The notes under the pieces are model-generated. The model searched no databases. It was not told the DNA's origin and was given only the letters and a program-made list of their open reading frames with translations. Source: Dehalococcoidia bacterium (GTDB taxonomy: Bacteria > Chloroflexota > Dehalococcoidia > Lucifugimonadales > QGNO01). Taken from it: a stretch of DNA of 64,000 nucleotides. The position numbers and the translations under genes are program-made. Each line of letters opens with the position of its first letter. The stretch's first letter is position 1. The DNA lies in the NCBI GenBank assembly GCA_965197965.1, contig OZ240235.1, forward strand, positions 1,317,820-1,381,819, read 5' to 3'. This document shows, piece by piece, positions 32,061 through 34,863 of this stretch.

Positions 32061-33197
32061 TCAGAATAACCGGATTCTCTCGATGACGTTGGCACCTCCC
32101 AGTTCCTGCCATCGACGATTCCATGCCTCATCAGGAAGGGTTAACAAATTATAGAAGTGCTCGTGACGAATCCAGCGTTCTCGAACGTGGCTAGTGGCAC
32201 GTGAAAGGGTTGAATGCAATTCAGAAAGCCCTTCAGGCGGCTCGAGTACCTTAAGTACTTCGTCAAGGTCCCGCATCCTCGAGCAGACCGATTCTCCGGG
32301 TTGCAGCGTACCTGGGCCCATACCCGCTGGAATGCCCTCAAGCACGTCACATGCAGCAACCATCAAACTATAGAACCAAGCCGTTCGCCGAAACCTAGTA
32401 GAGCGCACAATAGATCCCATCTCATCCTGAATGGATCGCAAAGCATTCCTGAATACACGCTCTACTGCCTCGCGGTTCGGGAAGTCGTCGTCGTATTCTT
32501 TGTACAGTTTCGAGATCATGCTGATGTCAGAGATTCCCCTTACAATGGCAACCAGAACGTCAGAGGTCAGTTCTACTTCTTTCATTCGCGCTATCTGTCG
32601 GCTACTAAATGTCTTCATGGTTTCCCAAGCTTCTAGAGAGGATTCCTCAGCTGCCAACTTATAGGCTGTCTGCTTGAACCACCCAAACCACCTAGCGTTA
32701 AGCTTCTCCTGCCTGTTGAGAACCAAAGTGTATGTATTGAGCCTCTCAAACATAGCCCACACTTCTGGGTCGCTAGCTTCTTCCATAACTTCGGCAGAAA
32801 TCTCATAGTTGAGGAAAGCGGCCTGAACAGGTTCTGGCAGATCAATAAATGTGAGGCCGCCAAACTTACTGTGGTGCTTTAAATCTAGGCGCAGTTTCCC
32901 ATTGTAGAAATCAATTATAGCTTTGAGTCGTTGTTGACCATCAACTACCTCATATTGGAACTGAGCCGAACTCGCAACTACTCCTCTAAGATAAATCTTC
33001 GGCATGGGAAGACCACGTACGACCGTATCTATCAGATATGACCGAGCCACTTCTTCCCACGCTAAGCGGCGTTGGAATTTTGGCTGCAGAACCAAGTTGT
33101 CCCTAGCAGAAAGGCGCAATAGGTCAGCTATCTTATAAAGTTTCCGATAGAAAGTTGCCATTTTATTAGGCACCCCACGCCGTTCTGATATTGTCAT
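32061..33197 (-). CDS. DUF262 (ParB/Srx-like) protein without a DUF1524 nuclease domain
   Basis: 378 aa with PKFQRRLAW, LPMPKIY, VVDGQQRLKAI (DGQQR at 32928-32942) and FERLNTYTLVLNRQE. I see no HNH/His-Me motif in the C-terminal half. The start is either 33197 (GGAAG upstream, 32-nt overlap) or 33161 (4 nt after the upstream stop). Confidence 0.75.
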   Translation of the reverse strand: MTISERRGVPNKMATFYRKLYKIADLLRLSARDNLVLQPKFQRRLAWEEVARSYLIDTVVRGLPMPKIYLRGVVASSAQFQYEVVDGQQRLKAIIDFYNGKLRLDLKHHSKFGGLTFIDLPEPVQAAFLNYEISAEVMEEASDPEVWAMFERLNTYTLVLNRQEKLNARWFGWFKQTAYKLAAEESSLEAWETMKTFSSRQIARMKEVELTSDVLVAIVRGISDISMISKLYKEYDDDFPNREAVERVFRNALRSIQDEMGSIVRSTRFRRTAWFYSLMVAACDVLEGIPAGMGPGTLQPGESVCSRMRDLDEVLKVLEPPEGLSELHSTLSRATSHVRERWIRHEHFYNLLTLPDEAWNRRWQELGGANVIERIRLF

Positions 33198-33807
33198 AGA
33201 CTTCCATTGGGATGAAACGATCTGCCGATAAATTGGTCGTCTCGACTAGCTGTCTGATACGATCCGCATCCGCAATAGATTCTACCAATATATACTTGAC
33301 ATCGGCGTATTCAAACCTAAAGGACGTCGGCACACGCCATTCTCTTTCATGAATCCAATCTTGGATAACTCCTTCTTGCAGTACTGCGTCTGGATCGAAG
33401 GGTACGACGAACGCCTTGAGTGCTTGAGGAAGGTTACCGATCTCATTGCGCAATATGTCCCCACGAATATAAAGTGCGGGACCACCACCCGCTTGGAAAA
33501 TCGTCCCTTTCGAAAAAACTACTCCGTACGAACTGTATCTATTCCTATGCGCCAGGAGGGCATCCCACACGCATTCTGTGAAACATACTGCGGAGGCTTC
33601 TCCTAAGAAAGGCATGGGCGAAGCATGTATAGTTCTTGTTGTCAGAATACTAGCTAATTTTTCAATTGCACCCTGCTCCTTATACTGGTGAAGTGGGTGG
33701 TCAGCAGGGATATCATCTTGTCTAACCATTCTTCTTGCTCCATCTTTTGTGAAGTGAACCAATAGAGGCGAATAGTCCGGCGTCTTTCGGGTGTAATAAT
33801 TTGTCAT
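33166..33807 (-). CDS. AbiGi-like (abortive-infection family) protein
   Basis: I prefer the start at 33807 (MTNYY), 7 nt after the methyltransferase TGA. The track start at 33888 would overlap by 74 nt. LLVHFTK, VCFTECVW, YSSYGVVFSKG...GGPALYI and HEREWRVP resemble the AbiGi family pattern as I remember it. Confidence 0.45.
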   Translation of the reverse strand: MTNYYTRKTPDYSPLLVHFTKDGARRMVRQDDIPADHPLHQYKEQGAIEKLASILTTRTIHASPMPFLGEASAVCFTECVWDALLAHRNRYSSYGVVFSKGTIFQAGGGPALYIRGDILRNEIGNLPQALKAFVVPFDPDAVLQEGVIQDWIHEREWRVPTSFRFEYADVKYILVESIADADRIRQLVETTNLSADRFIPMEVYDNIRTAWGA

Positions 33808-33814
33808 CGAGGTC

Positions 33815-34708
33815 TCATTTGGCTGCAGCGCTGGGTTGCTTAAGTACCTTTGCCAAACGGTCGTTCGCGGCTTGAGCCTGAGCCGCATCTATTTCGAATC
33901 CCACAAAAGAGCAGCCAGATTCTATTGCCGCAATTCCTGTAGAACCAGAGCCAGCAAAAGGATCAAGTACGACCACATCTGACCCTGTAATTCCATACGC
34001 AGCTATGCATTGCCTTGGAAGCGCTAAGGGGAAGCGTGAGAAGTGGGGCAATCCGTCGATCTTGTCGGTGCCGAACTCCCAATAGGAAGGCACGGGCGGC
34101 TTTGTTCGGAAATAATGTTTCTCTGATTTGGCGAAGAGATAGATGGCCTCGTGACTCCTGTGCGGCCGTCTGGCCATTCCTTCCGGCATGGGGTTCTTCT
34201 TACGCCAAATTATTTCACCTCGGAATATATAACCTTTGTCGCATAGGTCTATTGTTAGCCGATGCGGTAGTGCCAAGAGATTTCCGTATCTGAGCCACCT
34301 AGTTTCATGGTCAACAAAAGCTCTGCGTTTCTCGCGTGGTTTCGTGTACGCAGAATTGTTGGAATTGAGCTGTCGATTGAAAATGCCGCCAAGGCTGCTG
34401 TATTTGGAATCTTCTAAACGCCAATTGATCGGCGTGTTGTAAGCATCGCCCAGATTTATCCACAAGATCCCACTAGGTTTCAGCTTGTGCAGAACCGCCA
34501 AGAATACGTCCGACAGGCACTGCAGGTACAGCCTCGGATCCGGTATCACACCAATCCCGCCGTCAAGCCGCTGCCCCCAATACGGTGGGCTCGTGACAAC
34601 GATATCTATTGACTGGTCAGGTAATTTGAGAATGAGATCAAGGCAGTCGCCAATTGCAACACGATTCAACGCGAAGCAACCTAATAAACTTTGGGTATCT
34701 CCAGTCAT
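33815..34708 (-). CDS. Beta-class N4/N6 DNA methyltransferase (SPPY motif IV, probably m4C)
   Basis: Motif IV TSPPY (34580-34591) precedes motif I LDPFAGSGSTG near the C-terminus, which gives the N6_N4_Mtase beta order. I prefer the start at 34708 (MTGDTQ, GGGAGG upstream), because the track start at 34780 lies upstream of the predicted promoter. Confidence 0.8.
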   Translation of the reverse strand: MTGDTQSLLGCFALNRVAIGDCLDLILKLPDQSIDIVVTSPPYWGQRLDGGIGVIPDPRLYLQCLSDVFLAVLHKLKPSGILWINLGDAYNTPINWRLEDSKYSSLGGIFNRQLNSNNSAYTKPREKRRAFVDHETRWLRYGNLLALPHRLTIDLCDKGYIFRGEIIWRKKNPMPEGMARRPHRSHEAIYLFAKSEKHYFRTKPPVPSYWEFGTDKIDGLPHFSRFPLALPRQCIAAYGITGSDVVVLDPFAGSGSTGIAAIESGCSFVGFEIDAAQAQAANDRLAKVLKQPSAAAK

Positions 34709-34747
34709 TGGACCTCCCAAGGGCCAACTGGCGCACGATGCCACCAT

Positions 34748-34776
34748 AAAGTAGCAACTCCACCGGTGGTGGTCAA
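34748..34776 (-). promoter_or_regulatory. Sigma70-type promoter of the methyltransferase operon with a palindrome in the spacer
   Basis: The minus strand reads TTGACC, a 17-nt spacer, then TACTTT. The spacer contains the perfect palindrome CCACCGGTGG (34760-34769). Confidence 0.45.
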
Positions 34777-34863
34777 GCAATCCAGAGAGAAGTGGCCCCT
34801 TGTAGCCAAACTCTCCTTCAGATGGTAACGTTATCTAGAATGGGATTGTGCTAGGAGGAAAAT

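Follow-up and report, generated by a model that had tools for sequence, protein, structure and literature searches.

A recurrent cassette of a DNA methylase, an AbiGi-family protein with a predicted ADP-ribosyltransferase fold and an NsnA-like DUF262 protein: a candidate restriction–modification-like defence module

Described systems and the three proteins of the cassette

Several described defence systems share components with a three-gene cassette found in a 64,000-nt stretch of the genome of a Dehalococcoidia bacterium (assembly GCA_965197965.1, contig OZ240235.1, positions 1,317,820 to 1,381,819; this whole stretch is called the window here). The cassette consists of three consecutive, tightly packed minus-strand genes that together span 2.8 kb: gene 1 (33815–34708, 297 aa) encodes a beta-class N4/N6 DNA amino-methyltransferase, gene 2 (33166–33807, 213 aa) encodes an AbiGi-family protein with a predicted ADP-ribosyltransferase (ART) fold, and gene 3 (32061–33161, 366 aa) encodes an NsnA-like nucleoside triphosphatase (NTPase) of the ParB-DUF262 type with an all-helical, ParBDB-type C-terminal domain. 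It is a real, recurrent and mobile three-component unit, low in GC and horizontally acquired. With moderate confidence, it can be interpreted as a methylation-gated, restriction–modification (R–M)-like mobile defence module with an ADP-ribosylating effector. The types of module are known and their combination is undescribed: no association of DUF262 with AbiGi, ART or DarT was found in the literature searched, and, as a preliminary description of the locus had supposed, no set of PADLOC, Pfam or NCBIfam models gives a complete known system for the trio. The Menshen survey states that further DUF262-centred systems are 'not limited to' the named ones and gives no description of them.

The closest likeness of the cassette is to R–M in its working, to Menshen/PD-T4-2 and SspABCD–SspE in its sensor and to DarTG in its effector fold, and a defining feature of each system compared is missing from it. 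Type II R–M systems (BsaWI-like, XamI/AccI-like, or DCD-methyltransferase with a PD-(D/E)xK nuclease) have a solitary amino-methyltransferase of the same lineage in a compact mobile cassette, and gene 1 is such a methyltransferase with its catalytic motifs in place, but the cassette has no recognisable endonuclease fold; its 'R' slot holds an ART-fold enzyme and a ParB-type NTPase, and it lacks the C-protein of related BsaWI-like loci. DarT, a DNA ADP-ribosyltransferase toxin, is the nearest solved structure to gene 2, and the use of NAD+, possibly on DNA bases, would be common to both. However, gene 2 has no PF14487 sequence match, the cassette has no DarG macrodomain or NADAR protein, and the partner of gene 2 is a methylase-linked ParB NTPase. 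Gene 2 falls in the same Pfam family (AbiGi, PF10899) as one half of lactococcal AbiG (AbiGi with AbiGii), but there is no AbiGii partner in the cassette and no AbiGii-type neighbour in related loci, and its AbiGi subfamily is distinct, being at most about 40% identical to the lone-type AbiGi homologues found and defined by its DUF262 partner. GmrSD, BrxU and SspE share with gene 3 a DUF262 NTPase sensor that carries DGQQR and is coupled to an effector, whereas their C-terminal DUF1524 His-Me (HNH) nuclease is absent from the cassette, in which a separate ART protein would be the effector. In SspABCD–SspE, too, a DUF262 protein is coupled to a module that modifies self DNA; the modification in the cassette would instead be methylation by a single methylase. 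Although PD-T4-2_A is the second PADLOC match of gene 3, no PD-T4-2_B partner is present. Gene 3 shares the architecture of NsnA from Menshen (NsnABC), its best PADLOC match, but the cassette has neither the NsnB ABC-ATPase nor the NsnC effector (an NfeD gene on the opposite strand lies downstream), and neither is found in the 41 related loci described below. The putative effector is the upstream ART, and the methyltransferase, which is obligatory in the cassette, is not mentioned in the text of the Menshen paper (PMC12065111).

The families named for the three genes in the preliminary description (beta-class N4/N6 methyltransferase, AbiGi and DUF262) are confirmed by Pfam, and the SPPY, HEREWR and DGQQR motifs are present. 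Gene 1 matches PF01555 (N6_N4_Mtase, E=1e-31), with SPPY followed by FAGSGS, and MTase_II in PADLOC (6.7e-53). Gene 2 matches PF10899 with 26.9 bits against a curated cut-off of 22.4, which places it within an Abi-like family; the same model is matched by 29 of 33 gene-2 homologues, and PADLOC returns AbiGi only, weakly. NCBIfam gives nothing beyond Pfam and PADLOC for any of the three genes.

The AlphaFold2 model of gene 2 (pLDDT 86.5, pTM 0.84) has an ART fold. When it is compared with the PDB by Foldseek, the top four matches are DarT (probability 0.96–0.99, E about 1e-3, TM 0.36–0.42), Arr and PARP1 stand lower in the list, and there is no nuclease among the matches. A profile of the gene-2 family finds only chance matches in PDB sequences, and Pfam at E<=10 gives AbiGi and three weak DUF2971 matches, with no DarT (PF14487). 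A viral structure library gives uncharacterised proteins and one weak DarT, and a search of PHROGs gives nothing informative. The ART superfamily carries the signature [R/H]x[D/T] - [S/Y]x[S/x] - [Q/E]x[Q/E/D] on strands 1, 2 and 5, and AbiGi (PF10899) is named among the ART-like families in a survey of ART families (PMC12522546). The candidate catalytic residues of gene 2 are H18-F-T20, C75-F-T77 and/or Y91/Y94, and E154-R-E156, so that the tripartite signature is present with a C-for-S variant as motif II. In an alignment of 33 diverse homologues, reaching down to 36% identity, the HxT and ExE motifs are invariant: H18 (VHFT, in the first predicted strand) is kept in every homologue that covers the position, and E154-R-E156 (HEREWR, at the start of strand 156–159) does not vary. 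C75-F-T77 closes the second strand of the model. Gene 2 can be read as a catalytically competent ART-fold enzyme with a predicted activity, and as an enzyme effector rather than an 'antitoxin', a label that Pfam applies by analogy only. The role of effector or regulator previously proposed for this protein is thereby narrowed to the former, given the intact HxT...ExE residues and DarT as the nearest structure. A PD-(D/E)xK nuclease, such as those downstream of DCD-methyltransferases, was considered for gene 2 and rejected, as neither a nuclease motif nor a nuclease structural match is present. No nuclease family is detected in genes 2 or 3 by Pfam, PADLOC or NCBIfam, and the reported absence of a restriction endonuclease, a DUF1524/HNH module and AbiGii holds in these searches and among the neighbouring genes.

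Gene 3 matches PF03235 (GmrSD_N/DUF262, E=1.5e-21) and has no PF07510/DUF1524 match in Pfam. In PADLOC, it matches NsnA (5.8e-33) over profile positions 49–251 of 385, followed by PD-T4-2_A (8e-20). In its AlphaFold2 model (pLDDT 83.6), the N-terminal domain is of the ParB/Srx type and the C-terminal half is all-helical, the Foldseek matches include ParB CTPases, BrxU and SspE, and the nucleotide-binding motifs PKFQRRxxW and DGQQR are invariant among homologues. NsnA of Menshen is a ParB-DUF262 protein with a 'ParBDB' domain and a proposed DNA sensor (PMC12065111). Gene 3 has this same architecture, that is, a ParB-DUF262 NTPase with a helical DNA-binding domain and no nuclease domain. The PADLOC 'REase_II' model PDLC03418 (372 positions) also matches gene 3, in the DUF262 domain only (3e-15); some database entries for a 'type II REase' may be DUF262 proteins that are called R merely for adjoining a methylase.

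The AbiGi-like/DUF262 pair and its methylases

The conserved core of the cassette is the pair formed by the AbiGi-like and DUF262 genes. When species-representative genomes were scanned with a profile built on homologues of gene 2, 75 loci were obtained, and a DUF262 gene adjoins the AbiGi-like gene in only the four closest of them: three Dehalococcoidia metagenome-assembled genomes (MAGs) with the same trio and one Aminicenantes MAG with the pair and a different methylase. The 71 other homologues, which are more distant, stand alone among recombinases and assorted genes. A metagenome scan limited to the close subfamily gave 62 loci, in 37 of which DUF262 directly follows the AbiGi-like gene; none of these 37 has a homologue of the window methylase. 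The resulting set of 41 pair loci (37 metagenome and 4 genome loci, both genes detected) has DUF262 directly downstream of the AbiGi-like gene in every case (41/41), and within this subfamily the pairing is obligate. The exact trio with a beta-class SPPY methylase is found only in the window, in a near-identical strain and in five related loci, three of which are labelled Dehalococcoidia. Thus, the proposal that the trio is a unit holds for its recurrence and functional linkage, but the part that is conserved is the pair, and the family of the methylase varies.

The distance from the stop of the AbiGi-like gene to the start of DUF262 ranges from -8 to +6 nt (mode 2) in 47 loci, a count that comprises every locus whose alignment reaches the DUF262 start and so adds contig-end fragments and look-up loci to the pair set; this spacing indicates translational coupling. 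Neighbour-joining trees of the two proteins share their major groupings, and the DUF262 protein is more conserved than the ART (57–60% versus about 50% identity). In a profile search of 1.84 billion representative proteins (E<=0.001), the wider AbiGi-like family forms 1576 clusters, whereas the DUF262-linked subfamily is essentially one 50%-identity cluster with fragments and is therefore rare, occurring mostly in environmental assemblies. On a 1428-nt contig (P0080), the ART runs in frame into the N-terminus of DUF262, which is ambiguous between a natural fusion and a sequencing error at the contig end. A second candidate fusion of genes 2 and 3 (P0217, 554 aa) was rejected as a frameshifted merge of both genes.

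Among plasmid records searched by tblastn, the closest DUF262 homologues are at most 38% identical and have different partner genes. For instance, in the Glutamicibacter plasmid pRE117-1 (L143, 4001–5699), an NsnA-like DUF262 gene is followed by one for an uncharacterised 206-aa protein, and in an Asticcacaulis plasmid (L144, 3977–6123) such a gene is followed by a PD-T4-6-like Ser/Thr kinase gene beside PAPS-reductase and ATP-binding genes. These two DUF262 proteins are 31–37% identical to that of the window, and they suggest a wider family of pairs in which a DUF262 sensor is joined to a swappable effector. Neither of the two plasmid genes examined has a methylase beside it.

When the flanking open reading frames (ORFs) of the 41 pair loci were clustered and representatives annotated, four arrangements of pair and methylase emerged. 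In the first, a beta-class SPPY methylase (PF01555) lies upstream, as in the window, L001–L003 and L141/L142. In the second (9 loci), the upstream gene is a fusion of DCD (PF10539) with an N6_N4 methylase carrying DPPY. In the third (8–9 loci), an Eco57I-type NPPY methylase of ~517 aa lies immediately downstream on the same strand. In the fourth (L082, L094, L097, L099, L106, L109, L117, L139 and L140), an Eco57I-type methylase occurs on either strand, mostly beside RE_XamI or RE_AccI. At L117 (2356–8076), a single strand carries R.XamI, an Eco57I-type methylase, the ART and DUF262 in a layout resembling a four-gene operon, and 640 nt downstream there is another AbiGi paralogue, which is of the lone type that occurs independently of DUF262. 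The Aminicenantes pair locus (L004, 9576–12619) has a second methylase, beta-class SPPY, on the opposite strand ~340 nt beyond its Eco57I-type one; two uncharacterised genes (219 aa and >478 aa) follow on the same strand as this second methylase, and the group may be another R–M-like unit.

A methylase is an obligate companion of the pair. It adjoins the pair in 26 of the 41 loci, the remainder being short contigs that end a few hundred bases from the pair; where both flanks extend for 1.2 kb or more it is present in 16 of 16 loci, and four further pair loci found by exact-protein look-up (three protein clusters) have one as well. The methylase is often within 4–80 nt of the pair and on the same strand. 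The control set consisted of 49 lone-AbiGi loci with 2 kb or more of sequence on each flank, and at none of them does a homologue of the four methylase types occur within 2 kb. The methylases that accompany the pair, among the few types sampled, are all amino-methyltransferases that carry an (S/D/N)PPY motif. In the phylogeny of the pair, loci group according to their type of methylase: the DCD loci and the beta-SPPY loci each form a monophyletic group, and the R–M-associated loci branch basally, interspersed with those of the same-strand Eco57I type. Such a tree is consistent with a pair that began beside an R–M system of the XamI/AccI type, lost the endonuclease and later swapped methylases, and was never without one.

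The relatives of these methylases indicate what normally stands beside them. The trio-linked clade of the window methylase shows 71–89% identity, and the next relatives, at 62–68%, belong to a very large family found in many phyla. Three such relatives outside the trio (L145, L146 and L147, 3501–5750 in each; 63–66% identity) are convergent to a ~390-aa HTH_31 gene, for which one locus (L146) gives a weak RE_BsaWI match, and a 77-aa helix-turn-helix C-protein adjoins the ~390-aa gene in loci of this type, a classical type II layout. The gene after a DCD-methyltransferase fusion usually encodes a PD-(D/E)xK nuclease (Bell et al., PMC7641849), and XamI/AccI endonucleases are still present in the basal pair loci. 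The usual partner of every one of these methylase types is a type II endonuclease; therefore, the AbiGi-like/DUF262 pair sits in, or beside, the endonuclease slot. L147 also has AIPR and TIR/ThsB genes close by.

All three genes are under purifying selection. The ratio of nonsynonymous to synonymous substitution rates (dN/dS) in the trio clade is 0.07–0.15 across the three genes, with dS near saturation; it is 0.07–0.15 for the AbiGi-like gene and 0.09–0.10 for the methylase against its trio orthologues, leaving out L001, for which the alignment is a 22-codon fragment. Divergence within the clade is in step, with amino-acid identities of 76–81% for the methylase, 71–75% for the ART and 77–83% for DUF262. 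The cassette has a GC content of 0.47–0.50 in five genomes, against flanks of 0.58–0.65, and it occupies at least two chromosomal contexts, lying between NfeD and Band_7 genes in the window and beside genes for DUF1801 and glyoxalase in L141; the L001–L003 flanks contain neither NfeD nor Band_7. The cassette is thus horizontally mobile.

Proposed mechanism and competing explanations

We infer a defence function for the cassette, and the division of labour proposed in the preliminary description, with the methylase marking self, DUF262 sensing DNA and the AbiGi-like protein as effector, remains the best fit. The amino-methyltransferase would mark host DNA, at a site that may be of the BsaWI type because its nearest relatives serve BsaWI-like type II endonucleases. 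The 'restriction' half would be the translationally coupled and co-evolving AbiGi-like/DUF262 pair, the products of which may form a physical complex. The NsnA-like ParB-DUF262/ParBDB protein would bind DNA, and its NTPase switch would separate methylated self from unmethylated incoming DNA; this sensing is proposed by analogy with SspE, GmrSD and BrxU, of which SspE is the closest, as a DUF262 switch tied to host modification. The DUF262 protein would then license the AbiGi-family ART to use NAD+ and ADP-ribosylate a target. Our tentative preference is for the invading DNA as this target, as with DarT, since no solved structure is closer to gene 2 than DarT and the ART has a partner that is predicted to bind DNA; replication would then be blocked and the DNA left uncut. 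Depletion of NAD+ and an attack on RNA or protein are both viable alternatives. The most specific form of the proposal is an R–M system with non-cleaving restriction, in which methylation-gated ADP-ribosylation of DNA by an AbiGi/DarT-like transferase is guided by a ParB-type NTPase sensor; this is conceivable, and we consider it doubtful in all its parts together. Among the known ARTs that act on DNA are enzymes whose targets are exocyclic amino groups. Since the methylases seen with the pair are all amino-methyltransferases, host methylation could, speculatively, block the ART directly by occupying the amino groups that it attacks.

Several points weigh against a methylation-gated module with an ADP-ribosylating effector. 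The characterised DUF262 enzymes GmrSD and BrxU attack modified, not unmodified, DNA. Pair proteins that are 50–60% identical would need to match the differing targets of unrelated methylases, some loci keep a complete R–M system beside the pair, which gives the methylase another obvious job, and the control for methylase adjacency covered only the four families found beside the pair. The fold match to DarT is modest (TM 0.36–0.42, E about 1e-3), and neither Pfam nor PDB sequences gave a sequence-level link between gene 2 and DarT. The window locus does not lie within a defence island; a VapBC-like pair at a distance of 2.7 kb is its sole neighbour of the conflict type. Lactococcal AbiGi has been reported without significant structural matches (review, PMC13064643).

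The direction of methylation dependence is reversed in a type IV-like arrangement, in which DUF262 senses modified phage DNA and triggers the ART, and the methylase acts separately as an orphan, as a member of an adjacent R–M system or as protection from other enzymes. Sensing of modified DNA is common to all characterised DUF262 defence proteins (PMC12065111; PMC12707154), BrxU and SspE are among the structural matches of gene 3, and the complete XamI/AccI systems at several pair loci already give the methylase a partner. Nevertheless, such an arrangement is unlikely, since it does not account for a methylase beside the pair wherever the flanks can be read, although unrelated families have taken its place at least three times. 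This methylase is often only 4–80 nt away on the same strand, none was found near lone AbiGi genes or the other NsnA-like pairs examined, and derived clades keep the methylase when the endonuclease is lost.

It is improbable that the pair is instead a toxin–antitoxin (TA) or abortive-infection (Abi) module, with the ART as the toxin (acting as an NADase or by ADP-ribosylating RNA or protein), DUF262 restraining it as an antitoxin or a DndB-like transcriptional regulator, and the methylase as cargo that the addiction module stabilises or as an independent hitch-hiker. The cargo would then always be an amino-methyltransferase of the kind that serves endonucleases, for which this explanation gives no account, and the DUF262 protein retains its full set of NTPase motifs and is less divergent than the ART (57–60% versus about 50% identity), which is unusual for a mere antitoxin. 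In its favour, DarT, RES and CmdT-type ARTs are TA toxins, and DndB acts as a transcriptional regulator. The tight translational coupling of the pair is typical of TA pairs, and the locus contains no macrodomain (DarG) or NADAR reversal enzyme. Moreover, AbiGi carries an annotation as a component of type IV TA/Abi (Pfam; PMC12522546), and DndB is a ParB-DUF262 protein with ParBDB (PMC12065111).

A pathway of self-DNA modification or epigenetic control, in which the methylase and the ART would both modify host DNA and the ParB-like protein would act as loader or regulator, as DndB does in phosphorothioation, is very unlikely. The cassette behaves as a mobile low-GC island, its interchangeable methylases come from ordinary R–M lineages, and it has no conserved cognate restriction partner to read such a mark, although DndB-type ParB-DUF262 proteins do belong to a modification operon (PMC12065111) and mycobacterial DarT is reported to act as a regulator on the DNA of the organism itself (PMC12170906). 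That the genes are chance neighbours without joint function is scarcely credible. The promoter match (see below) is not statistically distinctive, but dozens of loci repeat the same gene order and coupling, together with co-phylogeny, purifying selection and co-transfer, and these already contradict a chance association.

If the module does gate an ADP-ribosylating effector by methylation, ADP-ribosylation would be a new effector chemistry for systems that distinguish self from non-self by modification, an enzymatic role would be assigned to the AbiGi family, which is poorly understood, and NsnA-like ParB sensors could be wired to methylation marks. The system is small, with three genes and clear catalytic residues, and the pair is predicted to be toxic, or to restrict, only without the methylase. 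A programmable or sequence-specific DNA ADP-ribosyltransferase would be of interest for genome editing, in which DarT2 is already used (PMC13368585).

Genomic setting of the cassette

The packing reported in the preliminary description agrees with the ORF list and the sequence. The ORF of gene 1 is open to a TTG at 34780 (33815–34780, 321 aa), and the ATG at 34708, four bases after GGGAGG, is a much better and more likely start judging from the sequence. For gene 2 (ORF 33166–33888), the start is probably the ATG at 33807, which leaves a gap of 7 nt after the gene 1 stop. Gene 3 follows gene 2 after a 4-nt gap when read from the ATG at 33161, or overlaps it by 32 nt when read from an alternative ATG at 33197 (32061–33197, 378 aa).

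GC content across the cassette is 0.45–0.52, against 0.57–0.63 in the flanks; for the block as a whole it is 0.485, versus 0.581 in the rest of the window, in agreement with the low-GC segment described earlier. The flanking genes are on the opposite (plus) strand, as also described: an NfeD-type membrane protease (30550–31938) and a Band_7/SPFH gene (34864–35718). NfeD and Band_7/SPFH families usually form one operon, and the cassette therefore looks like an insertion between them. The downstream boundary of the low-GC cassette is the spacer between the NfeD and DUF262 stops (31939–32060). No convincing flanking direct or inverted repeats that would mark integration were found around the cassette; an imperfect 11-nt direct-repeat pair (10/11) lies near its two ends, at 31982–31992 and 34770–34780, and is too short to interpret.

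The single consensus-like promoter that had been proposed for the operon is present as a candidate sigma-70-like site on the minus strand (34861–34889: TTGACG, a 17-nt spacer, an extended TG and CATATT), known from its consensus match only and overlapping the start codon of the divergent Band_7 gene. This is the weak point of the earlier account: four sigma-70-like sites were found in the region, against 3.0 +/- 1.7 expected in shuffled sequence, and the candidate is therefore given little weight. The SPFH gene now depends on whatever promoter sits in the 155-nt divergent spacer. The VapBC-type pair lies further along the plus strand and consists of a small ribbon-helix-helix (FitA-like) gene (37506–37772) that overlaps a PIN-domain gene (37763–38167) by 10 nt.

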